Shown piece by piece: positions 7,539 through 35,772 of a stretch of DNA of 64,000 bases (the first letter of the stretch is position 1; the number at the start of each line of letters is the position of its first letter). Under the pieces are notes generated by a model. The model was not told where the DNA came from and did not search any database. It saw nothing but the letters and a program-made list of their open reading frames with translations. Source of the DNA: an uncultured delta proteobacterium (GTDB lineage: Bacteria; Desulfobacterota; Binatia; JACPRU01); contig CAVUWD010000014.1 of assembly GCA_963745025.1 (NCBI GenBank), positions 224,001 to 288,000 of the forward strand, given 5' to 3'. The translations under genes and the position numbers were made by a program.

Positions 7539-9926
7539 TCACATACTTACGAGACAGATTGAACCACGTGGTTCAAACTGCCCTTGTTTGAACGCAGCGA
7601 AAGCATATCGCGGCCGGTGATGGCGCCGATGGAGACGGCCGCTGTACTGAATGAGAGTCCCCTTCCACGAGATCGGCATCGCGAGAAAGAGCGTATCAAG
7701 GCGGGCGTCGTCGAATCCCTCACCGACGTACCGGCCGGTCGCCAGCACCAGCCGCTCTGCGGTATCCGGGATCGCGGCGAGGCGTTCGGCCGACACGCGC
7801 CGTTCCTTGGGGCTCGTCCCGCCGTGGAGCAGAACGAGATGCTGCACGAACGCGCGGAGGTGGTCGGCGAAGTACTCGACGTGGTCCTTCCGCTCGGTGA
7901 GCAGGATCGGTGAGCGACCCTCGTGGATGGCCGCGATCACGTCATCGAGGATTTCTCTGTTCCGTGCGTTGTCGTGAGCGAGCGCACGATAGACCTCCTG
8001 AATGCTCGCGTCGGCACTGTCACCCGCCATTCGGAACGCGGTCTCACGAACGATCAGCCGGTGGTCGAACGGGCGGCGCGCGGCCTGGATCTTCACGTCC
8101 ACGCTGAAGCGGATCGGCCCGAGCTGCATCTCGGTGATGGGTTGGTGGCCGTCGCGCCGCTCCGGTGTTGCCGTGAGGCCGACGAGGTAGCGCGCCTTCA
8201 CCTCTGAAAGCACGCGCTCGAAGGAGACGGCAGGCACGTGGTGACACTCGTCGACGATGACGTGTCCATAGACGGCGACGAGGTCGTCGACTTGCCCCTT
8301 CCGGACGAGGCTCTGGATCATCGCCACGTCGAGGCGACCGTTGGGCTTCCGCTTTCCGCCGCCGATCTGGCCCACCTCCTTCTCGTCGATGCCGAGAAAC
8401 ATCGCCAGCTGAGCGATCCATTGGTCGAGGAGAGGCTTGCGATGGACGAGGACCAAAGCGCTTCGGGCGCGCTCGGCGATCAGGTACGTGCCGAGCACCG
8501 TCTTGCCGATCCCGGGCGGACCGCAGAATACGCCCGTCTCATGCGTCAAGAGCGCGGCAGCCGCGTCTCTCTGGACGGCGGTGAGATCACCGTCGAATGT
8601 GAAGTCCAGAAGAACGCCGTCGTGCCTACGGTCCTCAACGGCCAGCTTCACGCCGAGCTGTTTGAAGAGCGCTTGCGCCTCCGACAAGCAACCGCGCGGC
8701 AAGGCGATGAAGCGCGGCAGATCTTCGAAACAGGCGACGACACGCGGCGTCGTCGCCGTCGAGAGGCGCATCCTCTGCTTCTTGTAGAACTCGGGATTCT
8801 GGAAGGCAGCGAGCCGCTTCAACTGGTTCAGCAACTGCGAGGGGAGACCTGCCTTCTCGACGAAGAGTCGTTGCGCAAGCACGGCCGCTACTTCCGACGG
8901 CAGCGGGCCCTCGACGCGGGGCGGTCGAGGCCGTCCTGGTGGCCTCGACCACGGCGCCGCTATCTCCTGTTCGTCGATGACGTCTGCGAAGCGGATTCCA
9001 ACCACTTGTCGGGTGCGAGTCGCCTCTTTCGCGATCGCCTCGACCGCTGCGGGCTCCAAGCGCGGTACGGTCGCGAGGAAGGCCCACTGGTCGGAGAACG
9101 GCTCGAACCGCTCGTCGACGAAGACGCTGTTCCCCTGTTCCCTGGCTTCGTGCTGGAGAGGCAGCGCGATCAAGTTCCCGAAACCGCCCCGCGGCAAGGT
9201 GTCTTGGTTTGGAAAGAACCGGTCATACGACTCCATGCTGAGCTCGTGTCGGCGGCTCATCGTCTGGGTGATGAGGTAGCAGCCCATTCGCCGCGCCACG
9301 TTCGCTCGCACCGGCGCGGTGAAAAAGAACCACGCGTGGGCGCCGTTCCCCGAACGAGAGCGCTCGATCGCGATAGGGACGCTACGGACTCGACAGGTCT
9401 CCGCGAAGGCTGCGACATCCTCTTTCCACGAGCTCTTGTCGAAATCAGCAGCGAGGAACCAGCACGTCTCGTCTTCGAGGAGCGGGTACACGCCCATGAC
9501 GTGCTTGCCCCGCAGGTGGTCGAGGACGACCTGGTCGCTCACGGGCAAGAACGCCTGGTTCGGGCACTCGCTGCACTTGCCTCCGGTCTTCAGGATGCAA
9601 AGGCCCGCCTGGAACTTGTTCGAGCACTCGGGAGCGTACCCGGGCTTGCCGGTCCTCTTGCTCACGAAGCGAGTCGGGAAGATGTCCGGCCGCCCTCGGA
9701 AAAGCGACCGGAAGAGCTTGACCTTGTCGGCTGGCGTGTGAGGCGTTTTGCCGTTCCCCGCGGACGGGAGCGACCAGACCGGAGACGTCGTGCTCGAAGC
9801 TGCCTCGAGCTTCGACAGCAGCTGCTCGCGCCTTGCTCGCGCCTCGGCAAGAGCTCGCTCGAGATCAGCGAGGCGTTGCTCCTCGCGAGCTATCTCCACG
9901 AGGATCGTTTCCTTCGACCGGCTCAT
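7539..9926 (-). CDS. Archaeo-eukaryotic primase-like domain (TOTE conflict-system type) fused to SF2 DEAD/DEAH helicase; C-terminus apparently replaced at the island junction
   Basis: LFRGR..YAP.C, FLAADFD, SRSGNGAHAW, GGFGNLIALPLQ primase-like motifs; GPPGIGKT, DECHH, GLTATP, GEGFDD, QYSGRLHR helicase motifs; frame runs through the palindrome. Confidence 0.8.
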   Translation of the reverse strand: MSRSKETILVEIAREEQRLADLERALAEARARREQLLSKLEAASSTTSPVWSLPSAGNGKTPHTPADKVKLFRSLFRGRPDIFPTRFVSKRTGKPGYAPECSNKFQAGLCILKTGGKCSECPNQAFLPVSDQVVLDHLRGKHVMGVYPLLEDETCWFLAADFDKSSWKEDVAAFAETCRVRSVPIAIERSRSGNGAHAWFFFTAPVRANVARRMGCYLITQTMSRRHELSMESYDRFFPNQDTLPRGGFGNLIALPLQHEAREQGNSVFVDERFEPFSDQWAFLATVPRLEPAAVEAIAKEATRTRQVVGIRFADVIDEQEIAAPWSRPPGRPRPPRVEGPLPSEVAAVLAQRLFVEKAGLPSQLLNQLKRLAAFQNPEFYKKQRMRLSTATTPRVVACFEDLPRFIALPRGCLSEAQALFKQLGVKLAVEDRRHDGVLLDFTFDGDLTAVQRDAAAALLTHETGVFCGPPGIGKTVLGTYLIAERARSALVLVHRKPLLDQWIAQLAMFLGIDEKEVGQIGGGKRKPNGRLDVAMIQSLVRKGQVDDLVAVYGHVIVDECHHVPAVSFERVLSEVKARYLVGLTATPERRDGHQPITEMQLGPIRFSVDVKIQAARRPFDHRLIVRETAFRMAGDSADASIQEVYRALAHDNARNREILDDVIAAIHEGRSPILLTERKDHVEYFADHLRAFVQHLVLLHGGTSPKERRVSAERLAAIPDTAERLVLATGRYVGEGFDDARLDTLFLAMPISWKGTLIQYSGRLHRRHHRPRYAFAAFKQGQFEPRGSICLVSM
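7559..7576. repeat. Palindrome TTGAACCACGTGGTTCAA copy 1
   Basis: Perfect 18-bp palindrome; context CAGA-core-ACTG (one mismatch in extended arms). Confidence 0.95.
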
Positions 9927-10122
9927 GCTCGGTGCTCGCGGGGTCAGCGCCGCTTTGAGTCGCGATTATACACGCGCAGTGCCTGCCGCATGAAACCGAG
10001 CCGTCGACCCCATTCAGGCAACCGGCGGACAGCAACGGGCGCGATCGGCCGACGGTTCTGGCGCGCTGCACTAGCCCCCGGAATGTGAGTAGGATAGCCT
10101 TATACCCCACGATGAGGACACG

Positions 10123-10392
10123 ATGCCGGAGCCGCAGCGAGTAGCGTCCTACGAGGAGTACCTCCGCGAGGCGATGCGCCGCGCCGAGTACGATAAACTC
10201 GATGCCGGAGGATGGTTTGCGCGGATTCCTGGTTTCCAGGGGCTCTGGGCAAGCGGCCCTACGGTGGAGGATACGCGCAACGACCTCTGGGAGGCGCTCG
10301 ATGGCTGGCTCTTCGTAAACGGCTTCGTCAGCCATCTCCCACCGCCGCACATCGAGGGCGTCGAGTTCGACGTTACGAAGCGCGGCGAGTGA
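10123..10392 (+). CDS. HicB-family antitoxin
   Basis: WFARIPGFQGLWASGPTVEDTRNDLWEAL partial RNase H-fold motif; adjacent to HicA. Confidence 0.8.
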   Translation: MPEPQRVASYEEYLREAMRRAEYDKLDAGGWFARIPGFQGLWASGPTVEDTRNDLWEALDGWLFVNGFVSHLPPPHIEGVEFDVTKRGE

Positions 10393-10399
10393 GGCGCGG

Positions 10400-10627
10400 A
10401 TGACCGCGCGCCTCACCCCCTGCTCGCGGCGAGAGTTCATCCGCAAGCTGAGTGGGCTTGGTTACGACGGCCCGTATCCGGGTGGGAGGCACGAGTTCAT
10501 GGCGGCTCAAGGAAAGCGACCGATCAGAGTGCCCAATCCTCACGGCGGCCAGGACATCAGCGTTGATCTCCTCTCGCGAATCTTGCGGGAAGCCGGAATT
10601 GACCGTGACGAGTGGGCGCGCCTGTGA
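10400..10627 (+). CDS. HicA-family toxin
   Basis: 75 aa; GGRHEFM, VPNPH, LLSRILREAG typical of the HicA dsRBD-like fold. Confidence 0.85.
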   Translation: MTARLTPCSRREFIRKLSGLGYDGPYPGGRHEFMAAQGKRPIRVPNPHGGQDISVDLLSRILREAGIDRDEWARL

Positions 10628-10651
10628 ACTTTGAACCACGTGGTTCAAAGT
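10628..10651. repeat. Palindrome copy 2 (24-bp perfect: ACTTTGAACCACGTGGTTCAAAGT) followed by conserved tail
   Basis: Directly read; tail CGGGCTCCATGTAGGACGAAGTAGGACGA. Confidence 0.95.
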
Positions 10652-10718
10652 CGGGCTCCATGTAGGACGAAGTAGGACGATTAAACCGAGAAAACCCTTA
10701 GAAATCGCGGTCAGAACT

Positions 10719-10744
10719 AGGGTTCGAATCCCTTCTGCTCCATT
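10719..10744 (+). repeat. att core copy 2 (duplicated tRNA-Ala 3' end)
   Basis: Identical to 7497..7522. Confidence 0.9.
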
Positions 10745-10819
10745 TCGTTTCCTTCGGAAGGGTCAACACTTTCTTCGTCGCCCGTCTCTCCGTGGGACAA
10801 ATCGTCCCGGATTTTGTGG

Positions 10820-10925
10820 TGATCGGTCATCTCCTCCGTGCTCTTCTCCATGACCATGCCGGCGTTGTTCACGAGGATCTCGATCGCGGCGACGACCGCG
10901 GCAACCTCCTCCGGCCGGGTCACGT
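10820..10925 (-). pseudogene. Short-chain dehydrogenase remnant
   Basis: DVTRPEEVAAVV..IEILVNNAG fragment only. Confidence 0.55.
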
Positions 10926-11002
10926 CGAGCCGGAATGCGTGGGCGGCCCCCCGGCCTCGCGGATCTGCATGCGGCCCCCGAGAGGAAGCGCTGGGGAGGG
11001 AG

Positions 11003-11464
11003 TCATCGGTCTCGTCGCGCGAGCACGATGACGTGCTCGCCCTCCTGCACCGTGCCCCCGCGCTGGTTGAAGAGCGTCACCGCGAACGTGACGACTCCGC
11101 GATCGGCCTTCTTCAGCTCGCCCTTGGCTTGGATGCCGATCCGGGCATGGACGGTGTCGCCGACGAGGACGGGGGCCAGGAACTTCCAGCGGATCTCGAG
11201 GAAGGCGAGCGCGGTGCCTGCGAAGAGGCCGAGGCGGTCGACGAGACCCAGGTACATGTCGTGGATCAGCGGCCCGTGCGGCACGCGCGTGCCGAAGGGG
11301 CTCGCTGCGCGAGCGAACTCCTCGTCGGTGTGGAGCGGATTGAAGTCGCCCGTGAGGCCGGAAAAGGCCAGCACGTCGCCCTCGGTCACGGTCCGGCCGC
11401 CCGTCCAGAATTCCTGGCCGACAGCCAGCTCGTCCCAGGATCTCCCGCTGTAGGTCTTAGGCAT
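11003..11464 (-). CDS. MaoC-family dehydratase
   Basis: FSGLTGDFNPLH..HG hydratase motif, APVLVGDT. Confidence 0.9.
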   Translation of the reverse strand: MPKTYSGRSWDELAVGQEFWTGGRTVTEGDVLAFSGLTGDFNPLHTDEEFARAASPFGTRVPHGPLIHDMYLGLVDRLGLFAGTALAFLEIRWKFLAPVLVGDTVHARIGIQAKGELKKADRGVVTFAVTLFNQRGGTVQEGEHVIVLARRDR

Positions 11465-11796
11465 CGGGTGCCTCGCTGAACGTGTGCTGCATTTTCCGGT
11501 TCCTTGACGACGGCGTGCGGGAATCCGGCCGTAAAATTTGCGTAGAAAGGGAGATCCCGCCAGCGTCTTAGATCGAAGGTCATGTCGACATCGGCCCGCT
11601 AATCGTTCCTATCTCCTCACGGCAGTTATGAGAAGCGCATGTGTTCGCAAATCGCCGGTGAAGTCGTGGGCGACGGCGAGACGCCGTCCTAGCCACAGAC
11701 GATCACGCGACAGGAAGCGCGCGAGACGATCTTTTCCCACTTACCGCGCTGCGGGAGCGTGGGATCATCTGACGCGCTGCTGAGCGCGCGGCGCTG

Positions 11797-12597
11797 CTAG
11801 CGCGATGAACCCGTGGCCTTCGGTAGGCTGTCAAGGAAAGAGCGGACCGTCCGCGTGAACACCTCGGGTTGTTCCCAGAACATCCAGTGTCCTGCGTTCT
11901 CGACGATTGTCAGCTGGCATCCGGGGATCTGCGCCGCGAGGAACTGATGATACTTCACGGGCGTGAGCCGGTCCTCGGCGCCGCACACGGCCAGGGTGGG
12001 AACGCGGATGTCCTTCAGCCGGCTCATGACATCGAACGTGTCGTCGGCAATCCAGTCCTGGTATGTGACCGCCGGGTCCGTGTCCGCCGTCAACTTCTGA
12101 ACCGCGTCGACCACTGACTGTGGCGTGGCGCTCGCGAAGCCCCACGAGCGATCCGTCGCAAGCGCGCGCCCGGCCTCGGCCGCTGCGCGCGCGTCGCGGA
12201 GCAGGCCGGAATCCACCCGCAAACGCGCTCCCGTGTCGACCAGAATCAGGCCGTCGAGCAGATCCCCATAATAGAGGGCGGTTAAAAGCCCGACGGCGCC
12301 CCCGAGGGAGTGGCCCGCGACCACGAGGCGATCCCATCCCAGCCCCTTGGCCAGCTCGACGACGAAGTGGGTGTAGTCGGCGATCCCGCGAAAGCCGCGC
12401 CCAGGCGATAGCCCGTGCCCCGGCAGGTCGATCGCCACGGGCATGTGCGCGTCGGCAATCGCGGTCATGTGCGGGACCCACACCTGCCCATTGCAGCCCG
12501 TCCCGTGCACGTAGAGCACCTTCCGCCATGGCCGGGCGGTGCGACTGTCGACCGTGTGATAGTGGATCGTGCGCTCGGCGATGACTGCAGATCCCAT
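11797..12597 (-). CDS. Alpha/beta hydrolase
   Basis: HG oxyanion motif, DLPGHG, GHSLGG nucleophile elbow, NAGH. Confidence 0.9.
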   Translation of the reverse strand: MGSAVIAERTIHYHTVDSRTARPWRKVLYVHGTGCNGQVWVPHMTAIADAHMPVAIDLPGHGLSPGRGFRGIADYTHFVVELAKGLGWDRLVVAGHSLGGAVGLLTALYYGDLLDGLILVDTGARLRVDSGLLRDARAAAEAGRALATDRSWGFASATPQSVVDAVQKLTADTDPAVTYQDWIADDTFDVMSRLKDIRVPTLAVCGAEDRLTPVKYHQFLAAQIPGCQLTIVENAGHWMFWEQPEVFTRTVRSFLDSLPKATGSSR

Positions 12598-12811
12598 CGA
12601 GGCGTCCTCTCTGGTCGTATTCGCGCCCGCCGTAAGGCCTGATCTCTCGGAGGAGAGGCTTGCTCTCGGGGTGATAGTCTTCTGCGGTGGCTCTGCGCAA
12701 GGAGAAAGGGTTCTACGTCCGGCCGGATAGGAGAGGTGCGCGTTGTGCAAGTAGAACGAAACCAGGATCGGGACGTGCACTGCATCGAGGGAGCGTGCGA
12801 TGAACCCGGCC

Positions 12812-13771
12812 CTAGGTCAGCGGGAATTTCTGGCCGACGAGCTTCTCCGACACCTCCCAGAGCCGCTCGGCGTTGGCGGGGTCGAGAGCGTAGGACTTCA
12901 CGCCGTCGAGCGCGTCTTCCGCGTCGTTTACTGTGGCGACATGGCAGTCCTCGAGATAGAGGCCGCCGCGTCCTTCGAGCTCCGGCGCCGTGGCGGCAAA
13001 GGTCTCCGTTGCCGCGCCGGCTTCGACCGTCTTGAAGCTGACGCCGCCGCGACTCATGCGCGAGCGGATGAACTCGAGATCCTCGGGCTGCAAGTGTCGG
13101 CCGAGCTCGGTCATGATGCCGCCCGGATGCAGAGCATTGGCGTGCACCCCACGCGAGCCGAGCCGCTTCTCCAGACCGACGGCGAAGAGGATGTTGGCCG
13201 TTTTCGACTGACCGTATGAGAGCCACTTGTCATACGGCCGCTTCTCGAACTGAATGTCGTCGAAGACCACCGGCGACATGTGATGCCCCCGCGAGCTGAC
13301 CGAGACGATGCGGCTCGGCGCGCCGCGCAGCAGCGCCGGCGCCAGCAGACAGGTGAGGAGAAAGTGGCCGAGGTGATTCGAGCCGAATTGCAACTCGAAG
13401 CCGTCCTGGGTCTTCATGAACGGACTCGCCATCACGCCCGCGTTGTCGACCAGGATGTGAAGAGCGTCGTGCCGTGAAAGAAGGCGCTCGGCGAAGGCGC
13501 GGATGTTTTTCAGCGAACCGAGCTCGAGCTCCGCGACCTCGACCCGGGGATTGCGGGTCGAGCTGCGGATCGCCGCGGCGACAGTCTCGCCTTTCGGCAC
13601 GTCGCGAGCAGTGATGATCACGTGCGCGCCCCGCTCGGCCAGGACGCGAGCGGTCTCCTGTCCGAGTCCGCTGGACCCGCCGGTCACCAGCGCGAGCTTG
13701 CCGCGCAGGTCGATGCCTTCCGCGACCTCGCTCGCCGTCGTCTGCGCTCCGAACTTCGATGCGTCTCGCAT
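12812..13771 (-). CDS. SDR oxidoreductase (retinol dehydrogenase/WWOX-like)
   Basis: TGGSSGLG, NAGVM, NHLGHF, YGQSK. Confidence 0.92.
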   Translation of the reverse strand: MRDASKFGAQTTASEVAEGIDLRGKLALVTGGSSGLGQETARVLAERGAHVIITARDVPKGETVAAAIRSSTRNPRVEVAELELGSLKNIRAFAERLLSRHDALHILVDNAGVMASPFMKTQDGFELQFGSNHLGHFLLTCLLAPALLRGAPSRIVSVSSRGHHMSPVVFDDIQFEKRPYDKWLSYGQSKTANILFAVGLEKRLGSRGVHANALHPGGIMTELGRHLQPEDLEFIRSRMSRGGVSFKTVEAGAATETFAATAPELEGRGGLYLEDCHVATVNDAEDALDGVKSYALDPANAERLWEVSEKLVGQKFPLT

Positions 13772-13813
13772 ATAACCTCTCCGTCACTCGAGGTTTGCGT
13801 CCGTGAAGCTCAA

Positions 13814-14764
13814 TTACGATGCGGAAGCGGCTCGTCTGCGCCGTCCGCTGATCAAGTACACCGCCGCCCGCAGCTCGAGCAGCGGATCCGCCGAGGCCTC
13901 GATCCCGTCCACCCTCGGGATCGGATCGAAGATGATGTGCTTCTGCTCGCGCGCGTCGTTCGCCACCGGCGCCGTCAGCTCGATTCTACCGAGCTCGACG
14001 AGCGCTCGGCTCTCGGGCCAGTGAACCGTAGCATCGTCGAGGACGTCGCCGCGCTCCGCCAGCTGCACCGTCAATTTGAAACGCACCGGCCCGTTCCCCA
14101 CTCGCTTCGCGATCTCGTCCAAGAGATAGGTCGCGCTCTTTGCCTTCGTCGCCGCATCGTCGAGGTGCGCAGCGCCAGCCTCGGGAACGATCCGGTAGCG
14201 CCCGAAGCGGCTCACGCCATCCGCGTTCGTGAAGCGCATCGCGGTCACGCCGAAGTACGTCTCCGTCGCGAAGCTCACCGGAGCCGGCTTCGGCGTCTGC
14301 ACGAACGCCAGCGCCGCGGGATGGCTGCCGAGGAACGCCTCGAGCGGCGAGCCCGCGACCTTCGCCGGATCGCTCGACGCCACCGCCCGCAGAAACTCCA
14401 GGAACTCGGCGCCCGTGTGCGTCGGGAATCCGTCCGTCGAGTGGCTCACGATGTCGGTGTGCACGTGCTCCGCTAGATGGAAGCGGATCGCGAGCCCGCG
14501 TGGGTTGGCATTCGGATCGTTGTCCGGCAGCAACGGAACGCCGGTCGAGTTCGAGAAGCGCACTGTCACCGGCGTCGACGAACGCAGCACGTGCGGCGCC
14601 CTAGTGAGCGAGGACGCACCCGCTGCGGGGGTGAACGTGCCCGTGAACATCGCTCCTTTCGCGTGTGCTGGACGGAAGCCCGGATACTCTCCGAAGAGCT
14701 TCTCCAACTGGTGAATCAGGTCGTTGGCCAGAGCCAGCAGCTTTTCGTCGTTGGGAAGTGGCAT
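13814..14764 (-). CDS. Catalase-related peroxidase (SrpA-like)
   Basis: RPAHAKG, VRFS, DPLLELRAAVY. Confidence 0.9.
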   Translation of the reverse strand: MPLPNDEKLLALANDLIHQLEKLFGEYPGFRPAHAKGAMFTGTFTPAAGASSLTRAPHVLRSSTPVTVRFSNSTGVPLLPDNDPNANPRGLAIRFHLAEHVHTDIVSHSTDGFPTHTGAEFLEFLRAVASSDPAKVAGSPLEAFLGSHPAALAFVQTPKPAPVSFATETYFGVTAMRFTNADGVSRFGRYRIVPEAGAAHLDDAATKAKSATYLLDEIAKRVGNGPVRFKLTVQLAERGDVLDDATVHWPESRALVELGRIELTAPVANDAREQKHIIFDPIPRVDGIEASADPLLELRAAVYLISGRRRRAASAS

Positions 14765-15000
14765 CGTCGTTTCTCCTCATCGTGATGGCTGCGCTGCAAA
14801 GCTGGTGACTACCAATCCAGTAGTTTCGCGCAAGCGGGAGCGCGGTTCCACGACCGCCCCTTACGGAGAAGCGGGGGCGGGTCGGTCAGAAGCGGCTCTG
14901 CCTATCGACCTCGAACAGGTCGTGCCGGAGGCCGGCGTGCATCACCCGAGAGCGATGGCCGTGACCCGTAGCCGGAGCGAGGACACCGCAAAGGCGTGCT

Positions 15001-15228
15001 CTACCAGGGCGAGCGCCGCGTCGGTGGCAAAACCGCGATGCTGTCCGCGACGGGCGAAGTGGTAGCCGAGTTCAACGTCACTCGGCCGGCTGCAGCATCA
15101 AAAGAGAAGCGCGCGTTTGGAGGATTGGTCGCGTCGCAGGCGGCGCAGCGGGCCTCGATACTGATCCCGCATTCGACGCAGTGGACCGAGCGCCCCGCCG
15201 CCGGGGTCGAGCACTTCGGACAGACCAT
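15001..15228 (-). pseudogene. Double zinc-ribbon N-terminal fragment
   Basis: CPKC..CVECG..CAAC..NPPNARF, then degenerates. Confidence 0.5.
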
Positions 15229-15305
15229 CGAAACGACTCTATGCCATCCCCCGCGAACCCCGCGAGCCCCTTTCGCGCTCGCCTCCGACGGCCGCGGTTT
15301 GGCGG

Positions 15306-25813: not shown

Positions 25814-25986
25814 GGGATTCCACCCTTGTGTCGCTTCTCGACGCCGTCTCTCCCGAACCGGACGAGATTCGGCGAAGACTCGATACCTACTTCGGAGCCT
25901 CCCTTGGGTTGGACCTTCAGACGCTCGTCTGGAAGCTCGTGGACGCGATCAAGCGACTCCAAAGCCTGAAGAAGGAGCGCATCCCG

Positions 25987-26929: not shown

Positions 26930-27150
26930 GCGCCTGGCCTGCGTCGAAGGCGAAGCGGGTTCTCGCGGCGCTACTCAAGATAGGCTGGGCGATCAAGCGC
27001 ACCACAGGATCGCATCGGGTCCTGACACGTGCGGGCTGGCCCGACTATGTTTTCGCCTTCCACGACCAGGACGAGATCGGTCCGCGGATGCTCGCACGGA
27101 TCGGCAGGGCGACGGGGCTCGCGCCGAGATCCTCGTCCGTGTCGACGTAG
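26926..27150 (+). CDS. HicA-family toxin
   Basis: GW..KRTTGSHRVL..FHDQDEIGPRMLARI; GTGA overlap. Confidence 0.85.
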   Translation: MSAWPASKAKRVLAALLKIGWAIKRTTGSHRVLTRAGWPDYVFAFHDQDEIGPRMLARIGRATGLAPRSSSVST

Positions 27151-27382
27151 GCTGAGCACGCCTCGCTCGCCGGTGACGTCGTCAAGCCGGTGCTGCTGCC
27201 GCAGGCCTGATCGGGAACGAACGCGGAATGGTCTGCGCAACCACCCGGCTGTCGCGCGCCTAGCGTTTGCTCGACTTTTCTTTACTCGACGCAATGGGCC
27301 GGATCCTCACGCGGCGGCCGTACGCCAAGCGTCGAGGTCACGTACTCCATGGATCGACGAAGATCCCGTCATCCATGCCTGC

Positions 27383-28240
27383 TCAAGCGAGTCTTTCCGC
27401 AACCCCGCGGTCGAGCATTCCGTCGAGGATCGGCCAGTTCAACTGGGTAGCCGCGGCGTCGGCGACGATGACCGCGCCGTTGATCATGCGGGCCGCCGGC
27501 GAGCAGAGAAACAACACGATGGCCGCCATGTCCTCGGGATCGGCGTAGCGCCAGCGGCTCGGCTGATCTCTCACTGCCTCGACCGTGGTCCCATAGTTCG
27601 CCATTGCCGCGGGGCTCAGCGTCAACCCCGGCGCGACGGCGTTGATCGTCACGTTCTTGGCCTCGAGGTAAGGGGCCAGGCTTCGCGTCAGGCTGACAAC
27701 GCCTGCGCGCGCGGCGCCCGAATGTGCGAACATCGGCGCTCCTCGCTCGAACACGTAAATGTGCACGATGTTGACGATCGATCCACGGCCCCGCTCCATG
27801 AGGTGAGGCATGAAGCGGTTGCACATGTTCCAGGTGCCGTTGAGGTTGAGGTCGACGACCGCCCGCCAGCCGTTGTCGCTGATGGCGAACGGACTCGCCG
27901 TGAATTGGCCGCCCGCGTTGTTGATGACGAAGTCGACGGAGCCAAATCGGTCGAGCGTCGCGTCGCGCAGTCGCTCGACGGATGCCACGTCCCGGATGTT
28001 GACCTCCACGTGGAGGCAAGGGGCGCCGGTGGATTCGACTTCGCGGGCGACCTCTGCCAGCTCGGCCGGCTCGTTGCTGGCGATGACAACGTTCGCCCCA
28101 AGGCGAGCGAAGCCGAGAGCGGTTGCCCTGCCGATGCCGCGGCCGCCGCCGGTGATGAGCCCGGTCGTTCCCGAGAAGAGCCCCGGGGCGAACACGAGAA
28201 GCGGATTGGGTCTCTGCGTTTCCATTGGCATGTCCCCCAT
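27383..28240 (-). CDS. SDR (2,4-dienoyl-CoA/trans-2-enoyl-CoA reductase-like)
   Basis: TGGGRGIG, NNAGGQF, HSGAARAG. Confidence 0.85.
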   Translation of the reverse strand: MGDMPMETQRPNPLLVFAPGLFSGTTGLITGGGRGIGRATALGFARLGANVVIASNEPAELAEVAREVESTGAPCLHVEVNIRDVASVERLRDATLDRFGSVDFVINNAGGQFTASPFAISDNGWRAVVDLNLNGTWNMCNRFMPHLMERGRGSIVNIVHIYVFERGAPMFAHSGAARAGVVSLTRSLAPYLEAKNVTINAVAPGLTLSPAAMANYGTTVEAVRDQPSRWRYADPEDMAAIVLFLCSPAARMINGAVIVADAAATQLNWPILDGMLDRGVAERLA

Positions 28241-28368
28241 GAGAACGTGCGCCTCTAATATCGTGTCACTATGATTCGCTTGCCTTATGTGCCCCCGTTT
28301 CTCAGACCGGGGGTCGCTGACCTCGCCACGGCCGCGCTTCCTCGCGGATAGCCGGCGGATACCGGCGA

Positions 28369-29532
28369 TCACAGAAACGAGCCCGTGGCACTCAACCCGA
28401 GCTCGGGCCAAGCCCCCGTGGCGATCGATTCGAAGATACCGAAGCCCTTGGCGTCGCCCTCGCGCACGCGCACGATCGAATCGCGCAGTTGATGGATGCG
28501 GCGAAGCGTTTGCGGCTCGGTCGTGTCGGGGATGCGCTCGCCGTCGACATGGCGCTCGCCGCGCCACATGCCGTGTTTCTTGCCGTCGAAGCCGAGATAG
28601 AGCGCCGTGCCGAGGTAGAAGCCCGAATCGCCGACTACTTCGAGCTCGACATTGCGGGTCTCGCCGGAGAGCATGTCGAAGGAGATGGTTCCCTTCTGCG
28701 GGCGGCGCGTGCGATCGTCGTACTGGAGCTTGGGGCGCACGCGGCCGACGCGCTCCTGGGTGCCGTCGGGGTGGTTCAGATAGCCGGAGAAGTAGAAGGG
28801 ACGGCCGTCACGCATCTGCAGGTAGTAGTGGAACTCGTAGCGGGTGCCGTCCGGCCGCTCGAGCAGCAGCGGCGTCCACTGCAGAAGGACCGACGAGTCG
28901 GCCAAGGACCGATCTCCGAAGTCCCGCGCCGGGCGGAGGTCGGTCGGCGGAGCGCCAACGTCGAGGCGGACACCCCACGAGTGGTCACGAAAGGCGAACC
29001 AATCGTCGGGACGGACCTCTTCCTTGTTCCCCTCGACTCGCACCCAGCCGGACACGGTGCCGGCCTGATGGTAGCGGATGACGTCGGAGACCACGCGGAA
29101 GCCGCGCTCGTCGCGTTGCGCGTGGCGGTCCTCGAAGTAGGGAGGAAGCTTCTTCTCGAAGGTCACATCGAACGTCAGCGGCAGGACGTCGTTCTCGTCG
29201 AGCCGGATGCGGACCTTGTGGAGCGGCTCGACGACCTCGTAGCTGAGGGGACTGACCATGCTCGTGGTGGGATCGCCGGCGAGCTCGCGGCTGGCGCGGA
29301 CCGTCCACTGCTCGTTGCCGCGCGAAATGCCGCCGAAGGCGTCCATGACGTTGCGGTTTTGGTAGCGGCCGAGGCCGAAGTCGATCTGCAGCGAGCCGTC
29401 CTTCTTCGGGATCGACAACCAGATCTTCTCGGTCCAGGAAAGATCGGACTCGGCGACGGTGGCGAAGGTATCGACGATTTGGTGGTTCAACCCTTCGTCG
29501 ATGGACAGGAGCTTGCCGATGTTCGGGGTCAT
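28369..29532 (-). CDS. Conserved hypothetical protein (AttH/tocopherol-cyclase-like beta fold)
   Basis: 387 aa; RYHQAG.VSGW, RDHSWG motif. Confidence 0.6.
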   Translation of the reverse strand: MTPNIGKLLSIDEGLNHQIVDTFATVAESDLSWTEKIWLSIPKKDGSLQIDFGLGRYQNRNVMDAFGGISRGNEQWTVRASRELAGDPTTSMVSPLSYEVVEPLHKVRIRLDENDVLPLTFDVTFEKKLPPYFEDRHAQRDERGFRVVSDVIRYHQAGTVSGWVRVEGNKEEVRPDDWFAFRDHSWGVRLDVGAPPTDLRPARDFGDRSLADSSVLLQWTPLLLERPDGTRYEFHYYLQMRDGRPFYFSGYLNHPDGTQERVGRVRPKLQYDDRTRRPQKGTISFDMLSGETRNVELEVVGDSGFYLGTALYLGFDGKKHGMWRGERHVDGERIPDTTEPQTLRRIHQLRDSIVRVREGDAKGFGIFESIATGAWPELGLSATGSFL

Positions 29533-29659
29533 GTTGGTGGTCCTCCGATGCCGCGCTCGTATCTCTGTTGGCAGACGGCAGGCAAGTGATCGAAGGGACG
29601 AAGAAAATGACCTGAGAGGGCGGTGGGACTCCTGCGACGGAGATCTGATCCGGCGCTGG

Positions 29660-30637
29660 TCAACCGATGCGTCGCCGAATCAGCTCCACGTACTTCGGGA
29701 CCACGGGGCCCCAGGCCGCGAAGCGCGGATCGGTGGCGCGGCCGGTTCGATGGAGATGGAAGCCGAGACCGATGATCGCGGCGATCTTGCACATGCCGAG
29801 TGCCTCGTACCGACGGATCTCACGAGCCGTGCGCCCGGTCCCTGCCTCCCAAGCCGCGATCATGCGGGTGCGGTCCCACCACCCCGGCAGATCGAGACCG
29901 GCGGTCGCGATTGCTCCCGCTCCCTGATCGTAAAACGAGGCGAGGTAACCGAGATCGGTGAGCGGCTCACCGACGTGCGCCATCTCCCAATCGAAGAGGC
30001 CGACGAGTCGGCCGTCCCTCTGCCAGAAGCAATTCCCGTGCTTCGGATCGCCGTGCACCGGCGTCGGCGCGCCGGAGCACGGCGGGGGGTTGATCGTCAG
30101 ATCGTCCAGCAGCTCGAGAAGCGGCTGCGGAGCCTCGGCGCTTCGCGCCACGTCGCGCCAATGGGACGCCTCTTCGGCGGGCGTCTTTTGCGGCCCAGGC
30201 ATCAATTCGACCGGCATGCGGTGGACGGCGACGACCGCGCCGATCCATTGCGACGACATGTACCCTCGTACGTCTTCGGACGCCGCCGCCAGCCAGGCGG
30301 GAACCTGGTATTCGAACGCCTCCCCGGAGAGCCGCTCCATGATGAAGAAGGGAGCGCCGATGACGGACGGATCGGTGCAGAGCTCGAACACTCGGGGTAC
30401 CGGCGGACCACCCGAAAACGTGCCGACGGCGGATAGCACGCGGTGCTGGAAGGCCATGTCGTAAGGAGGCAGCAGGCCTTCTTCGGAGGGCTCCGTCCGC
30501 AGAATGCGGTCGAGCCCCTCGAGCAAATACGTCTCGTTCGAGTGACCGGTCGATAGCGGGACAACTCGTGTGATGGCCTCGCCGCCACTCAGGTACTGAC
30601 GAAGCCCCCGCAGCAGCCGCTCGGGATCGCGCGCCAT
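29660..30637 (-). CDS. Phosphotransferase family protein (APH/ACAD10-like)
   Basis: GHSNETY, GAPFFIME, VHGD..GN, DWEMA.VGEPL.DL. Confidence 0.9.
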   Translation of the reverse strand: MARDPERLLRGLRQYLSGGEAITRVVPLSTGHSNETYLLEGLDRILRTEPSEEGLLPPYDMAFQHRVLSAVGTFSGGPPVPRVFELCTDPSVIGAPFFIMERLSGEAFEYQVPAWLAAASEDVRGYMSSQWIGAVVAVHRMPVELMPGPQKTPAEEASHWRDVARSAEAPQPLLELLDDLTINPPPCSGAPTPVHGDPKHGNCFWQRDGRLVGLFDWEMAHVGEPLTDLGYLASFYDQGAGAIATAGLDLPGWWDRTRMIAAWEAGTGRTAREIRRYEALGMCKIAAIIGLGFHLHRTGRATDPRFAAWGPVVPKYVELIRRRIG

Positions 30638-30690
30638 ACGACCGCGGCCTTAACGCCCAGCCGGTCGCAGGTCAAGCGTTCGGCGACGTC

Positions 30691-31292
30691 GTGACGGACG
30701 GCGCATCGGAAGCACTCGTGCTCGCTGCCCTTTCGATAGTCGTGTTCTTCAGCTGGTTCGGCGGGGTAACGGGGTACCTGTCCGGCTGGGGCGCCTATTA
30801 CTTCGGGATGAACATCCGCTCCGGTTCCTGGCCTCGGCGCTCGTCATGTGCGCCTTCGCGGTGCTCCACATGAAATCGGAGTCGGGTCCGCTAGGGCGGT
30901 ATCGCGGACTCTCGAAGATTTGGCTCTCGGCGGGCGTCTTCTTCGGAGAGATGTCTCTCTGGATACTCTCCATCTTCGGGAACTTCGGCGACATGCACAA
31001 CTACCGCTACCAGGCGGACGGATTCGAACTCCTCGTCTTCAACCTCCTCTGGGGCGGCACAAACGCGTTGCTCATCTGGTTCGGGGCCGAGCGCGCTGCG
31101 CGAATGCTCGTCGGCTATGGCGTCACCTTTCTCGTTATCCAGGTCTACACGCTCTTCTTCGAGTACATCGCCGGGGCTCTCGGACCGGTCGTGACGATGT
31201 TTGTCGCCGGCGGAATCGCCCTCTGGCTCGCGTTCTATCTGGAGGGGAAACGAAAGGCCTTCCTCGCCCGCCGCGCCTTCGCGCCGCCTTAG
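30691..31292 (+). pseudogene. Membrane protein C-terminal fragment, frameshifted
   Basis: Hydrophobic helices split over ORFs 30691..30873 and 30846..31292. Confidence 0.5.
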
Positions 31293-31451
31293 CGTAGTCA
31301 CCCTGTCATTGGGGGGAGGCCGAAGGTCGACGAGGTCTCTCCAAGCCCGGCGTTGCCCAAAATCCGCACGGCAGCGACTCGATGCAGGCGATCCCGCCGA
31401 GCATTTGTGCCCCGACCGCCGCCGTCAGTCTGACTGCACGGTCTTCGGGCA

Positions 31452-32477
31452 TCAGATATTCCAAAGTTCCGGGAACTCCCGCGCAAGCCATCGGGCGATC
31501 GCCGCATTGACCGACGCGGGCCGCTCCTGCGCCATCCAATGGCCGGATCGAACGACGGCTTGCGACAATCTCTCGCAATCCTGACGCATCGGGTCCGCGA
31601 GCCGCGAGTCCACGGTTTCGCAGGTGTAATCGTAAGCCGCGTGCAAAAACAGGACGGGCATCGCGAGTTTGCCGCCGTTCACTGCCAGTTTACCAAATTC
31701 ACCGTTGCGCTCGTGATTCATGTACCAGGAGTCCGGCCCGAAAAAGCCGTTGCGCTCCAGCGCAGCGGCGTACTTGTGGAAGTCCTCCTCGCTAATGACC
31801 GTGGTATCGATCGGCACGTCGGGAACCACGCCGCCGGGGAACCATCCACCCTGATTGCGCACGTGCGCGGTGACCGAAGGTTTGCCCCTCCCGTCTGGGC
31901 TTCCCGCCCTGAAGAGCAGCTTGACCACTTTCGCGGGTGCGGCGTCGAATCCGGAGCGTGCCTGCTCGAAGCTCTCTTCGTAAAACCGCATGTACTCCCA
32001 CTGGCCGTATGGGTATTGCGCCTCTGGATAGACGGAGCGATCGACGAGCGACACGAAATTCTTGAGCGTAAAGCCCTTGGCGAAGTAGGGGACGCAGAGG
32101 TTCGCGACACCGGTACATCTGTCCGGATGATGGCTCGCGAGGCTCCATACGACCGGACTTCCCCAGTCGTGCCCGACCCAAATCGCCCTCTCGGCGCCAA
32201 GCTTGTCGAGCAGTTCGAGCATGTCTTTGACCGTTTGCTCGATCGCGTAATCTTCGTGGCGCGGATAGACGCTTGATCTGCCGTAGCCGCGCATGTCGGG
32301 AGCGATCGCGCGAAACCCAAGCGCCGCGAAGCATGGCAGTTGATGCCGCCAGCTAATCGAAAGCTCCGGCCATCCGTGCACGAAAATGATCAGCGGAGCG
32401 TCTTCGGCGCCGCAGGCTAGATAGAAGGTCGTGTGTCTTGGCGATCTTGCAATATGCTCGGTGACCGCGAACGTCAT
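31452..32477 (-). CDS. Epoxide hydrolase-like alpha/beta hydrolase
   Basis: HGWPE, DMRGYG, GHDWG, SGHW..QE. Confidence 0.92.
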   Translation of the reverse strand: MTFAVTEHIARSPRHTTFYLACGAEDAPLIIFVHGWPELSISWRHQLPCFAALGFRAIAPDMRGYGRSSVYPRHEDYAIEQTVKDMLELLDKLGAERAIWVGHDWGSPVVWSLASHHPDRCTGVANLCVPYFAKGFTLKNFVSLVDRSVYPEAQYPYGQWEYMRFYEESFEQARSGFDAAPAKVVKLLFRAGSPDGRGKPSVTAHVRNQGGWFPGGVVPDVPIDTTVISEEDFHKYAAALERNGFFGPDSWYMNHERNGEFGKLAVNGGKLAMPVLFLHAAYDYTCETVDSRLADPMRQDCERLSQAVVRSGHWMAQERPASVNAAIARWLAREFPELWNI

Positions 32478-33518
32478 CGTTTTTCCTCCCACGCAATCGT
32501 TTCAGGCCTGGTTGTCTTCTGAAAAATTAGAACGTCGGCAGGTGCTCGATGTCCTTGAACTCGTGCGGATACGTATAGTTCGTATTCGCTGCCAATTTGA
32601 CGCAACGCACTCTATCAGATGTTACCACCACTGCCCCAAGGCCACATCGATGCCGCGCCAGGACGTGGATACTCCTTGCCGCACGGGCTCGTCAAAGGGA
32701 AAAGGCCACTGTGCGTTCAGCGATGGCTGCAGCGGTTGTGCCTCGCCCAATATTCCATCGACCGCGCCGTGGTGCCAAAATGACAGCCCCCTAACGAACG
32801 ACGCAAAACGCGAGAATCCTTCGGAGGCTCAAGACAGTGCTCGTCATGTCCCCAATCGCATGGTTCGTCTTCGTTGGGCTTGTTCTCGGCGCCTACGGAG
32901 TCGTGCTGCTCGGGCTGGGTCGCTGATCCCCCGCCGGTTAGTGACGATCAGGCGTCGCGGCCGCCGAGTCGGTTGGTAGTGGTTCCGGCGCGCCGATCTC
33001 GGCACAAGTAAAGGCCGTCTCCACAAGGTCGATTGGGAGAAACAGTGGCGTGAATGCGAGCGCAAAACCCGCAACAACAGGCGGCGTAACTGGGATCATC
33101 GAGCAAACAAGAACCGCTCGCAAAACTTTGCCGGGCAAGCCCTCGTCGGAATCCGAACGAAAGCAAGTGGACACTTGATTGTTCGTCGCGTCGCCGACGA
33201 TATGCCAGAGCTTTTTGGTTGTGGGAATGCGACTCGCGCAAGGTGGGGGCTCAGGCTCCGCCGAGCGCATCGGTGGCGCTCCCCCGATACATCCACCGAG
33301 TCCTCCGATGAGCAGCACGAGGACTGCGGTTTGGAACGACGTGCGTTGCCGTTGATGTTTCCGATTCGCCGATGGCTCGAGTCGAAGCGTCGAGTCTGAC
33401 GGGGCGGTTTCGGTCACGCTGCGTTCCTCGGGGAAGCGGTTCGTACCTGACCTCCTGCGGTGTCTGCTGCGGCTGGAGACGGGCGTAAAGGGCACGTCGG
33501 GGCGGGGGCTGCGATTCG

Positions 33519-35003
33519 TTACGACACCCGCTTCACGCCTGGCGGCTTCCAGGTGCCTTCACCCGCCGGCAGGATTGAGGGTGGTGTCTCCTTCGGCCAG
33601 TAGAGACGCATCACCAGATAGATCGGGCCGTTCGGTGCGGGGAGCCAATTGGATTTCTTTTCCGCGCCCGGCGAGTCTTTCTGAATGTAGAGCATCAACG
33701 AGCCGTCCGCATTCCTCTTCATGTTGCGCTGCATCGGCGAATTGATGAGGTAGCGATTGATCGGGTTCTCGATCAGGAACTGCGTCTTGCCGTCGTACAT
33801 TGTGATCGACCAGAAGGCGTTCACCGGCGGCAATTGACCGGCCGCGAAGGTGAGCGTATAGTTGTGCTTGCTGCCGTCGAGCGGCTCGCCATCTGCATCG
33901 CTCCGAGTCATGGGGTACATGGCTTCCACGGCATCGTTACCGTATATGCCGGCTTGCGCGGCAGTGGCACGCAGCAGCCAGTTGCCATTGAAGAAAGCGC
34001 GGTCGCCAGTGATCGAGCCGACGCGCCATCCGTTGATGTTCTTGCCGAAATCGCTTACGGCCTTTGTCACCTTCTCCTCGCCATCTTTCATGCCCAGGCC
34101 CACTTCCGCTTTGTGCTCAAGCGAGAGGTCTTTGAAGTCGAACTGCTTGCCGGGCCCGATGCCGATGCTGGCAAGCTTGCTGCGGATTTCCTTCTCCTCC
34201 GGACCCGGAGGGGCGAACTGGAGCGAGAAGTCGAGGTATTCGAAGAAGTTGGTCTTGGCGAGCTCCTTGTCGATCTTGGGGAAATTCACGGCGGGAGCCG
34301 CGGGCGGCGCGGGCTGCTTCAGGTAGGCCGAAAGTGCCTGCACTTGATAGCCGGCTTGGATCTTCTCGACGTTCTTCATGTCGTTCGGGTTGAAGAGCTG
34401 GGTGCGGTAGACGGCCAAGGAGAACTGCGTGCTAGACCGGAACATCTTCTTGATGCGCGGCGGGGTCTCGCCTTTCCAATCGGGTCCGACGACCATGTAG
34501 TCGCCCGCCCCACTGCCGGTGGCGCGGCTTCCGATGTAGCCGTAGTTGAAGGTATTGCCGTCGCAGAGCATCACCGAGTAGTAGCGGGCCTTTTCCACCG
34601 CTGGGACGGACAGGACGATGGGCTCTGCCCGCAGATCCATCCACACCAAGGAATACGGCGTGTCGCTGTTGGGGGTGACGACGGCCGTGTCCTTGTATGT
34701 GAACACGCGGGGCTCATTGCGGATCTGATTGAAGGGCGCCTTGAACTGGCCCGAGGTGCGGTCAACGGCATACTCGTACATGACCGCGTAGTTCATCACG
34801 ATCGGCAAGCCGTAGATGAACCCCTCCTCGGCGATCGTTTTGGTCTCAGCGATACCCGGCTGGGTCTTTTCCGACCGTTCCGCCAGCGAGATGGCATCTT
34901 TTCGAGTTGCACAGCCGATCAGTAGCGTGGTGCTAGTGATGGCCGCCACGGCGACAAACATCCCGGCAGTGCATGCTCTAGCGAACACCCACAATCGAGT
35001 CAT
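33519..35003 (-). CDS. DUF1254/DUF1214 domain exported protein
   Basis: VVTPNSDTPYS, PPVNAFWSITMY, NWLPAP, MRLYWP; lipobox-like LIGC. Confidence 0.9.
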   Translation of the reverse strand: MTRLWVFARACTAGMFVAVAAITSTTLLIGCATRKDAISLAERSEKTQPGIAETKTIAEEGFIYGLPIVMNYAVMYEYAVDRTSGQFKAPFNQIRNEPRVFTYKDTAVVTPNSDTPYSLVWMDLRAEPIVLSVPAVEKARYYSVMLCDGNTFNYGYIGSRATGSGAGDYMVVGPDWKGETPPRIKKMFRSSTQFSLAVYRTQLFNPNDMKNVEKIQAGYQVQALSAYLKQPAPPAAPAVNFPKIDKELAKTNFFEYLDFSLQFAPPGPEEKEIRSKLASIGIGPGKQFDFKDLSLEHKAEVGLGMKDGEEKVTKAVSDFGKNINGWRVGSITGDRAFFNGNWLLRATAAQAGIYGNDAVEAMYPMTRSDADGEPLDGSKHNYTLTFAAGQLPPVNAFWSITMYDGKTQFLIENPINRYLINSPMQRNMKRNADGSLMLYIQKDSPGAEKKSNWLPAPNGPIYLVMRLYWPKETPPSILPAGEGTWKPPGVKRVS

Positions 35004-35090
35004 CGACCGTCCTCCCGTTTTCGGTTTGCGCTTATCCTAGCCGTTTGGCCGACGAGAAGGCTGCTCCCCCGGCGGGTGCCAGCGTTCAAT

Positions 35091-35495
35091 CTAGCCCAAC
35101 GCCCAGCCGAACTTGCTCTGCGGGGTGAGCTCGACGATCACGGAATCCTCCGATCCGAGCGGCGCTGCGGATTCGTATTTCGGATACTGCTTGTAGAGCT
35201 TGCGGCGGATCTTCTTGAATTCCGCTTTGTCCACGATGCGTACCGTGCAAACCAGCATCAGCCCGCGGAGGTCCTTCCACGAGTCGCGATAGACGTCGAA
35301 AACGATCGTCGCCCGTGGATTCGCTCGGAGGTTCTTCATCTTCCGCGCGTTCGTTTCCGAAGCGAAGTAGAGTTTTCCGCCGTCGACCAGCGGGCACACC
35401 GGAATGTTGTGCGGCGTACCGCCGCTGCTCACGGTGGCGAGGCGAGCGACACCCTGGGACTTGAGGAACGCCGTGTCGCTTCTCGAAAGCTTCAT
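35091..35495 (-). CDS. Pyridoxamine 5'-phosphate oxidase-family protein
   Basis: ARLATV..GTPH..P..KMKNLRANPRA. Confidence 0.85.
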   Translation of the reverse strand: MKLSRSDTAFLKSQGVARLATVSSGGTPHNIPVCPLVDGGKLYFASETNARKMKNLRANPRATIVFDVYRDSWKDLRGLMLVCTVRIVDKAEFKKIRRKLYKQYPKYESAAPLGSEDSVIVELTPQSKFGWALG

Positions 35496-35632
35496 GATCC
35501 TCCCTCTCCGCGCATCGGCGGCTGCAGTCCGGTGATGCTACGCTGCGCCGCCATGGGATCCATCGAGAGGACTTTACCCCTGCCGCGGCTCGTTCGCCAC
35601 TCGATTTCGGCGACATCGCGAACATGTCTCAG

Positions 35633-35658
35633 GAGTTTGAACCACGTGGTTCAAACTC
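35633..35658. repeat. Palindrome copy 4 (26-bp perfect: GAGTTTGAACCACGTGGTTCAAACTC) followed by conserved tail
   Basis: Directly read; tail GGGCTCTACGTAGGACTAAGTGGATGA..GAGAAAACGCTTGAAAATTGCGG. Confidence 0.95.
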
Positions 35659-35772
35659 GGGCTCTACGTAGGACTAAGTGGATGATAGAATGGAGAAAAC
35701 GCTTGAAAATTGCGGCCGTCGCTAGCTCGGCATCCTCTGGCCAGAGCGTCCGCTTCGTAGGAACATGGCGGC

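Follow-up and report, generated by a model that had tools for sequence, protein, structure and literature searches.

A co-varying palindrome borders tandem cassette-like units at a tRNA-Ala gene in an uncultured Binatia genome

The window analyzed here is a 64,000-nucleotide (nt) stretch of the genome of an uncultured bacterium of the Binatia (contig C14, positions 224001 to 288000; 5.6-Mb assembly, 92.65% complete). At its gene for an alanine transfer RNA, tRNA-Ala(CGC), the window carries an array of units that share one order: a 23-nt core repeating the 3' end of the tRNA, a left spacer of 38 to 51 nt, a palindrome, cargo genes, a second palindrome, a right arm of 71 nt, and the core again. 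Adjacent units are separated by a composite junction of ~150 to 165 nt, which runs from a palindrome through the 71-nt arm with its two GTAGGMC repeats, the core, and the 38- to 51-nt spacer to the next palindrome. This anatomy is well supported in its form, in its conservation, and in the position of its breakpoints at the core. With moderate confidence, we take the units to be small integrative cassettes without a recombinase gene of their own, arranged in tandem at the 3' end of tRNA-Ala(CGC), in which the palindrome would serve as an accessory or boundary element.

Anatomy of the units and their junctions

A search of the window allowing up to 3 mismatches found the 18-mer TTGAACCACGTGGTTCAA at positions 7559, 10631, 23212, and 35637, every copy being exact, in line with the initial annotation. 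Copy-to-copy spacings are 3072, 12581, and 12425 nt. Shuffled sequence gave a mean of 0.03 matches, with at least four matches in 0 of 100 shuffles, which rules out a chance origin of the four copies. Reading of the sequence also confirmed the lengths of 24, 28, and 26 nt noted earlier for the perfect palindromes at copies 2, 3, and 4 (Table 1), as well as the asymmetric flanks of copy 1, which read ..AGA on the left and ACT.. on the right.

The 3' end of tRNA-Ala is repeated over 23 of 23 nt at 7498 to 7520 and 10720 to 10742, bracketing a 3.2-kb unit. Copies 2, 3, and 4 are each followed by two variable bases, TCGGGCTC, and two GTAGGMC repeats; the arms of copies 2 and 4 also carry GAGAAAAC.CTT.GAAAT, and the 71-nt arm of copy 2 terminates at the 23-nt core. 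The two GTAGGMC direct repeats, 11 nt apart, are a conserved part of the right arm and have a putative arm-type role. Copy 1 stands on the opposite side of the core, 38 nt downstream of the tRNA. It had been read as a possible crossover hybrid, a reading that did not hold: C7:133453-133573 matches the module of core, spacer, and palindrome plus a further 42 nt with 95% identity over 121 nt, and copy 1 is therefore a regular left-arm copy. The left end of cassette 2 lacks a full palindrome and has only GTGGGACAA inside a small hairpin.

Cores are missing after copies 3 and 4 of the window. A contig binned to the Gemmatimonadales (L037), 97 to 98% identical to 22061 to 23730, retains the arm, the core, a 38-nt spacer, and a degenerate second palindrome, while in a genome of another genus (G006, locus L025) the same SelO gene is preceded by the arm, the core, and 48 additional nt. 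The cores at copies 3 and 4 have thus been lost by deletion. Complete junctions are present in L037, L074, and the family genome G001 (L016:17443-17623). The gap between right palindrome and core is 68 to 73 nt (mode 71, in 12 of 21), and that between core and left palindrome is either 38 to 39 nt (5 cases) or 47 to 51 nt (6 cases). The earlier proposal that the palindromes delimit cargo modules is thus upheld, each copy forming the outer boundary of a junction that separates cassettes.

Across the whole genome there are six exact copies and one with 1 mismatch, and every copy lies in island-like, toxin-antitoxin-rich surroundings. The statement that no copy occurs outside the island is correct within the window and fails genome-wide, with further copies on C7, C15, and C2, and in relatives; the palindrome is therefore not private to the window island. 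The 18-mer is the sole perfect palindrome of at least 18 nt, among 156 in the genome, that recurs more than two times, and all 7 genomic sites matching TTGNNNCAYRTGNNNCAA are this palindrome at island junctions. A general repeat of the repetitive extragenic palindromic (REP) kind is ruled out on these grounds, and the genome-wide scan proposed as a check for scattered, REP-like placement returned copies in island contexts instead.

Symmetry of the palindrome and breakpoints at the core

The symmetry of the palindrome extends beyond the 18-mer. Among 40 distinct right-arm copies, the flank pairs -1/+1 to -4/+4 were complementary in 30, 26, 32, and 30 copies, respectively, and pairs further out in 7 to 18; flank position 1 was T:A in 20 copies and A:T in 9. 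In a set of 31 copies, picked by their distance from the tRNA core, two-sided changes were found in 8 of 13 pairs, and 32 two-sided-change cells were counted compared to 10.1 +/- 2.4 in shuffles, a number reached in 0 of 500 shuffles (slid controls, 4 to 14 cells); these shuffle figures overstate independence, because the copies are related and their loci were mostly fetched by exact match. In variants, the center CAYRTG and the outer TTG/CAA are constant, and three inner positions change together on both halves. On unrelated contigs the symmetry is lengthened by arbitrary sequence, up to 9 to 12 nt. The sister genome G002, without the 18-mer and with six same-orientation cores on one contig, has at matching distances the palindromes TTGTCCCACGTGGGACAA and TTGTGACACGTGTCACAA (types TTGTCC..GGACAA and TTGTGA..TCACAA) and partly symmetric mixtures. 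Homologues of the 71-nt arm across family genomes are 76 to 88% identical, and seven of nine right arms found in other genomes by arm similarity alone kept 18 of 18 palindrome bases; the palindrome is therefore more tightly constrained than the arm. Collectively, the symmetric co-variation of half-sites and flanks suggests selection for self-complementarity. The co-varying arms described in the initial annotation proved to be real and wider than noted (40 copies; shuffle test), and its idea of selection for symmetry is supported by half-site and flank co-variation.

Local hairpins at the palindromes are predicted at -7.6 to -16 kcal/mol (z, -3.8 to -7.3; DNA parameters). Folds of the whole junction were no better than shuffles (z, -1.57 and -0.92), and the junction is therefore not attC-like. 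The predicted hairpins and the stem co-variation would agree with an RNA hairpin that ends or stabilizes transcripts at cassette borders in both directions, as an insulator, as would the placement of copy 2, which starts 4 nt past the HicA stop codon, and of copy 1 downstream of the tRNA. However, this explanation appears very unlikely, as no T-run follows any of the four copies, a terminator scan of 7000 to 11500 marks none, copy 4 is located upstream of the start of a minus-strand gene, and the 18-mer is constant letter for letter across genera, which a terminator would not need. A known RNA family was likewise rejected, since Rfam returned only tRNAs and two chance-level matches for 5 loci at E values up to 1.

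At every junction, unrelated sequence begins on both sides of the 23-nt core. Behind one arm type, many different sequences start immediately after the last base of the core, and the sequence preceding the core is the tRNA body in some cases and an arm in others. On C7, the core is preceded by a different arm, which has a TTGTGACACGTGTCACA palindrome, and followed by a spacer and palindrome of the window type. From the varying right-hand sequences and the C7 arrangement it follows that the two sides of the core stem from different insertions. Breakpoints flanking a short identical segment in the T arm of a tRNA are the usual mark of integrase-type exchange within that segment. As the breakpoints here flank the 23-nt tRNA core, strand exchange most likely takes place there and not in the palindrome. 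The initial annotation had proposed the palindrome itself as a crossover or hairpin-resolution site; the signature of exchange lies instead at the 23-nt 3' end of tRNA-Ala.

Candidate enzymes and the role of the palindrome

Scans with PF00589 of the genome under study and 5 relatives found no match near any palindrome or in the part of the contig that the window covers, and tblastn with 14 recombinases gave nothing near any Binatia-type copy. A custom recombinase hidden Markov model had no match on Binatia-type loci among 4335 open reading frames (ORFs) of the collected loci, nor in 5 other regions from genomes of the family, of which 3 lie beside tRNA-Ala and 2 at right arms found through arm similarity. 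A resolvase scan found none near Binatia-type arrays. That no recombinase gene was found in the arrays supports the earlier suggestion of an enzyme supplied in trans. The integron integrase profile TIGR02249 reached 73.9 bits at best in the genome, compared to a cut-off of 265. The genome holds two Xer-like recombinases; no dif-like site was found with a dif consensus at up to 7 mismatches, and the arms of the palindrome are identical rather than distinct. The link to dif drawn in the annotation found no support. The integrases of the Anaeromyxobacter-type elements described below were considered as the enzyme of this genome and rejected, as they have no close relative in it.

The annotation also pointed to protelomerases and HUH enzymes. 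A hairpin-specific single-strand enzyme, either a protelomerase or an HUH transposase (IS200/IS605 or REP type) using the end hairpin, would fit the perfect symmetry, the hairpin potential, the two hairpins flanking each junction, and the GTAGG motifs adjoining the hairpin, and two Y1_Tnp genes are present in the genome. Nevertheless, we regard such an enzyme as extremely improbable. PF16684 (ResT/TelK) had 0 matches in the genome at its completeness of 92.65%; all copies are contig-internal and read through as ordinary duplex, none lying at the end of a linear replicon; and the two Y1_Tnp genes sit away from the window contig, on C13 and C11, where no palindrome of this kind comes within 2.5 kb of either. 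HUH elements, moreover, are not known to leave 23-nt direct repeats of a tRNA end. Overall, scans of this genome and its relatives linked no tyrosine recombinase to the Binatia-type palindromes, scans of this genome linked no protelomerase or HUH gene to them, and the co-occurrence that the annotation proposed as a check was not seen there.

The reading we favor, of recombinase-less integrative cassettes, would work as follows. The right end of one unit meeting the next left end would form an attP-like junction bounded by a palindrome on both sides, and an excised circle would carry the same ~150- to 165-nt junction. Strand exchange would occur inside the 23-nt tRNA core, presumably through a tyrosine-type integrase with arm binding that is encoded elsewhere and acts in trans. 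In both arms, the palindrome would be a conserved element with an accessory or boundary function, and not the crossover site. Since symmetric changes in half-sites and flanks suggest that self-complementarity is selected, the palindrome could be recognized once extruded as a hairpin or cruciform, or else bound by a symmetric dimer, and its reading may assemble or delimit the recombination complex and mark the start of the cargo.

Several points weigh against this reading. No integrase lies in or beside any Binatia-type array in any of the scans, so the arrays may be fossils or move by another mechanism. We infer the role of the palindrome and its reader, be it a protein or a structure, from sequence. 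Most loci were fetched by an exact 18-mer match, which biases the conservation and co-variation counts. Furthermore, all 40 distinct right-arm copies show cargo that diverges within ~4 nt of the inner edge of the palindrome, and the homology of the window to L097, L112, and G001 ends at 7579, 3 nt past the left palindrome; exchange at the palindrome would give the same divergence pattern. On this alternative, crossover would take place in the palindrome itself, parsed as 6-6-6 or 11-6-11 around CACGTG, through a second recombinase acting in trans; the tRNA core would serve integration only, and cargo would be swapped or inverted between palindromes as in pdif-like modules. The two Xer-like recombinases and the inverted duplicate right ends of L109 would also agree with it. 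On the other hand, the left ends of the window and C7 stay homologous for 42 nt past the palindrome, and in the loci examined no palindrome lies between a left spacer and a full right arm, the junction expected from palindrome-by-palindrome deletion. The fully symmetric center would give no direction, and no recombinase is linked to the arrays, nor was a dif-like site seen with the consensus used. We therefore judge crossover at the palindrome to be unlikely.

The palindrome might also act as duplex DNA, serving as an operator or a loading site where a symmetric DNA-binding protein regulates or tethers the element; candidates are a ParB-like protein and a small repressor of the mobile element. 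Like the parS-type site TGTTCCACGTGGAACA of this genome, it is a palindrome of 16 to 18 bp with a CACGTG center and outer TG..CA. The parS-type sites TGTTCCACGTGGAACA and GTTTCACGTGAAAC, at C10:34890 and C10:37533, are 1 to 4 kb from a ParB_N gene (C10:38526), and in this genome such sites are confined to C10 beside ParB. In contrast, the palindrome differs from the parS 16-mer at 3 positions per half, these three inner positions vary between copies, and it is found at island junctions and not near parB; a second ParB_N gene (C11:106297), itself a candidate reader, has no such palindrome nearby. A duplex reading would require neither the paired changes in both halves nor the arbitrary symmetric flanks, and the Binatia cassettes encode no common DNA-binding protein.

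The other observations in favor of a duplex reader come from Anaeromyxobacter-type contigs. There, a pair of palindromes ~280 nt apart is located 130 to 150 nt upstream of a three-gene operon encoding a small protein, an HTH_17 excisionase-like protein, and an integrase, and the variant TTGGACCACGTGGTCCAA stands 16 to 17 nt from the main palindrome. In this context the palindrome therefore belongs to integrative elements as well, and it may be bound by an element protein. The small protein had no sequence match in the PDB, and a structure model of it was set aside as unusable (predicted local distance difference test score, 54). Weighing both sides, we consider the duplex-operator reading improbable.

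Distribution, cargo, and comparison with known systems

The scan of related genomes called for by the annotation found the exact 18-mer in five of the seven other genomes from this Binatia family. The module of palindrome, two bases, TCGGGCTC.., two GTAGGMC repeats, and core is present on C15 of the genome under study and in 5 of 7 other family genomes, and DksA and LarC are upstream of tRNA-Ala in all eight family genomes (tblastn synteny). Among 401 genomes sampled from the phylum, the arm occurs in this family only, the match being in the genome under study; the other 14 matches consist of the tRNA core alone. In viral contigs the arm pattern had 0 matches, and the 18-mer occurred once, as a coding coincidence. 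The 18-mer was further found in 19 stretches of a species-genome collection and in 81 reported metagenome stretches. The 80 metagenome loci examined hold 94 copies, comprising 29 of the right-arm type, 25 of a second family (CCCRTTTGCTCCAT and one base before the palindrome), and 40 not sorted by these patterns, which by eye include left-arm copies, variants, and unrelated contexts. In the literature library searched, no paper contains the 18-mer, its 14-nt core, or two variant forms.

Some individual loci have features of their own. On L093 (9750 to 9810) and its relatives, the C-terminal residues of an integrase read like a reverse-translated tRNA T arm, and the 3' end of the integrase gene would therefore overlap a tRNA-derived attachment core; this core differs from the tRNA-Ala-like motif beside the palindromes. 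On the Anaerolineae-type contig L085 (5092 to 6120 and 6953), the same 18-mer is ~830 nt from a tyrosine recombinase, which we take to resemble integron integrases. Two contigs of one Anaerolineaceae genome (L039 and L040) hold the 18-mer with similar flanks and an extra GGTTCAA half-site. A right arm on L021 (G007:C2) is interrupted at 2750 to 4092 by an insertion sequence of 1.34 kb that has inverted repeats at its ends and is accompanied by a CTAA duplication; the near-identical copy on G007:C14 lacks it.

That elements flanked by partial tRNA repeats accumulate in stacks at tRNA genes is already known, for example from the tycheposons of Prochlorococcus. In a report on these, partial tRNA repeats flank the units, newer units displace older ones from the tRNA, cargo-rich islands, remnants, and primase/helicase genes are described, an integrase is present in 910 of 937 elements, and the word stem "palindrom" occurs 0 times (10.1101/2020.12.28.424599). 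Compared with tycheposons, the window array is alike in its stacked units flanked by tRNA repeats, its cargo islands, and its primase/helicase gene, and differs in that no unit holds an integrase and the ends form ~150- to 165-nt junctions bounded by an identical palindrome. Its 23/23-nt direct repeat is of the kind expected of a tRNA-targeting integrative element, whereas no integrase was found inside. Cis-mobilizable elements beside integrative and conjugative elements likewise accrete in tandem at tRNA genes.

Cassette arrays without recombinase genes are also known already, from integrons. Like integron arrays, the window array consists of small cassettes in the same orientation, without a recombinase gene and rich in toxin-antitoxin genes, and its junctions resemble attC in being conserved separating sites with inverted repeats that would be served by an enzyme in trans. 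Unlike in integrons, no integron integrase scored above the cut-off, the junction lacks a whole-site fold, the core repeat corresponds to the 3' end of a tRNA, and direct repeats are found in the arms, as they are in attP. A bolder possibility, which we find doubtful, is an integron-like, non-integron system that builds arrays by capturing cassettes of 1.8 to 12 kb at tRNA-Ala through the composite site, with the palindromes read by shape. Equally tentative is the form such shape reading would take: a conserved CACGTG tip and TTG/CAA foot, a co-varying stem, and a factor acting in trans. Given the related sites in Anaeromyxobacter elements, a system of this kind would be shared between phyla. 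In the Xer-dependent pdif modules of Acinetobacter plasmids, the cargo is often toxin-antitoxin genes, the sites have 11-6-11 geometry, and the enzyme acts in trans. The window sites differ from these in that the perfect palindrome is unlike the dif consensus used, breakpoints lie at a separate tRNA core, and no link to Xer was seen.

Three features are new here: the conserved composite junction has an identical, co-varying palindrome at its borders, the arrays completely lack integrases in the scans made, and elements of another phylum share the palindrome. Active arrays would mean that an uncultured lineage of soils and wetlands stacks and swaps ready-made cassettes at one tRNA gene, the cassettes bringing defense, toxin-antitoxin, and metabolic genes without an enzyme of their own, in parallel to integrons and through a different site design. 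If they are fossil, the island is a genomic island of the common sort, notable only for how tidy its repeat is. In practical terms, the palindrome is a sharp, searchable marker of cassette borders, and its symmetric co-variation allows a clean contrast between structure-specific and sequence-specific recognition in site-specific recombination.

The cargo of the family cassettes includes paired genes (HicAB, DUF4258 with MqsA-like, RES-Xre, BrnT/BrnA-like, and PIN with ribbon-helix-helix) as well as dehydrogenases, hydrolases, TetR with DUF1329, a methyltransferase, SelO, and an acyl-CoA dehydrogenase with NUDIX. In the window, the AEP-TOTE primase-helicase fusion (7539 to 9926) is the single copy in the genome. 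The final ~26 codons of its ORF fall within the conserved left-end module, palindrome included, which suggests that a deletion fused the gene to the element end. TOTE systems have TPR, OB, and TBP partners, according to PMC12458937. The window primase-helicase stands without these three partners.

Cassettes are common to several lineages at 97 to 99% identity. This cross-lineage identity points to recent transfer or, for one contig (L037), to either transfer between phyla or mis-binning. The SelO gene and its flanks are 97.8 to 98.8% identical to G006, L092, and L121, and L121 has a further palindrome copy ~500 nt beyond SelO. As the SelO segment looks like a transferred cassette, the array may extend past its reported end.

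Table 1. Features of the tRNA-Ala array in the window, with the palindrome copies found elsewhere in the genome
Feature	Position	Strand	Evidence or comparison
tRNA-Ala(CGC), array anchor	7448..7520	+	ARAGORN; Rfam tRNA
23-nt core, attL copy: part of T stem, T loop, 3' acceptor strand	7498..7520	+	exact repeat of 10720-10742
38-nt left (P'-like) spacer with ATTTC-type repeats	7521..7558	+	sequence; homologous spacers in C7, G001, L037, L072
Palindrome copy 1, left-arm type, flanks not symmetric	7559..7576	.	sequence
Cassette 1 cargo: AEP-TOTE primase domain fused to SF2 helicase, 795-aa ORF	7539..9926	-	Pfam PF22548 5.5e-94, ResIII, Helicase_C
HicB-like (UPF0150) and HicA toxin-antitoxin pair	10123..10627	+	Pfam
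Palindrome copy 2, right-arm type, 24 nt perfect	10628..10651	.	sequence
71-nt right (P-like) arm: TCGGGCTC, two GTAGGAC repeats 11 nt apart, GAGAAAACCCTTAGAAATCGC	10649..10719	+	
23-nt core, attR copy of cassette 1	10720..10742	+	exact repeat
Cassette 2 left end, starting TTTCGTTTC as do the G001 and L055 spacers	10743..10810	+	
Cassette 2 cargo: MaoC, hydrolase, SDR, catalase-like, MFS_3, Band7, M24, cupins, PDZ protein, DUF4258 with MqsA-like HTH pair	10838..23122	.	Pfam
Palindrome copy 3, right-arm type, 28 nt perfect	23207..23234	.	sequence
Shortened right arm	23230..23260	+	remaining arm, core, next spacer and palindrome, and a further ~430 nt deleted compared to L037
Cassette 3 cargo: SDRs, cupin, APH, hydrolase, DUF1254/DUF1214, PNPOx	23261..35636	.	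Pfam
Palindrome copy 4, right-arm type, 26 nt perfect	35633..35658	.	sequence
Right arm, end portion and core deleted	35655..35716	+	compared to G006 (L025)
SelO segment, probably a further cassette	35717..37341	+	97.8-98.8% identity with other genera and contigs
Palindrome copies beyond the window	C7:133514 (exact); C15:81160 (exact); C2:80424 (1 mismatch)		

Beyond the SelO segment, window positions 37404 to 37421 form the inverted repeat GTTCACATGTACGTGAAC, which may sit within a small ORF; its counterpart on L121 forms a perfect palindrome of 18 nt, GTTCACGTGCACGTGAAC, in which CACGTG occurs twice. Inside cassette 3, positions 26651 to 27131 are a conserved within-cassette piece, 86% identical to stretches of L055, L084, and L087, and 26982 to 27129 are 79 to 86% identical to sequence located 100 to 230 nt inside two palindrome copies of G006. 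Two pairs of direct repeats elsewhere in the window are unrelated to the palindrome: one of 89 nt (61181 to 61269 and 61762 to 61850; 93% identical) and one of 45 nt (46674 to 46718 and 58585 to 58629; 96% identical).

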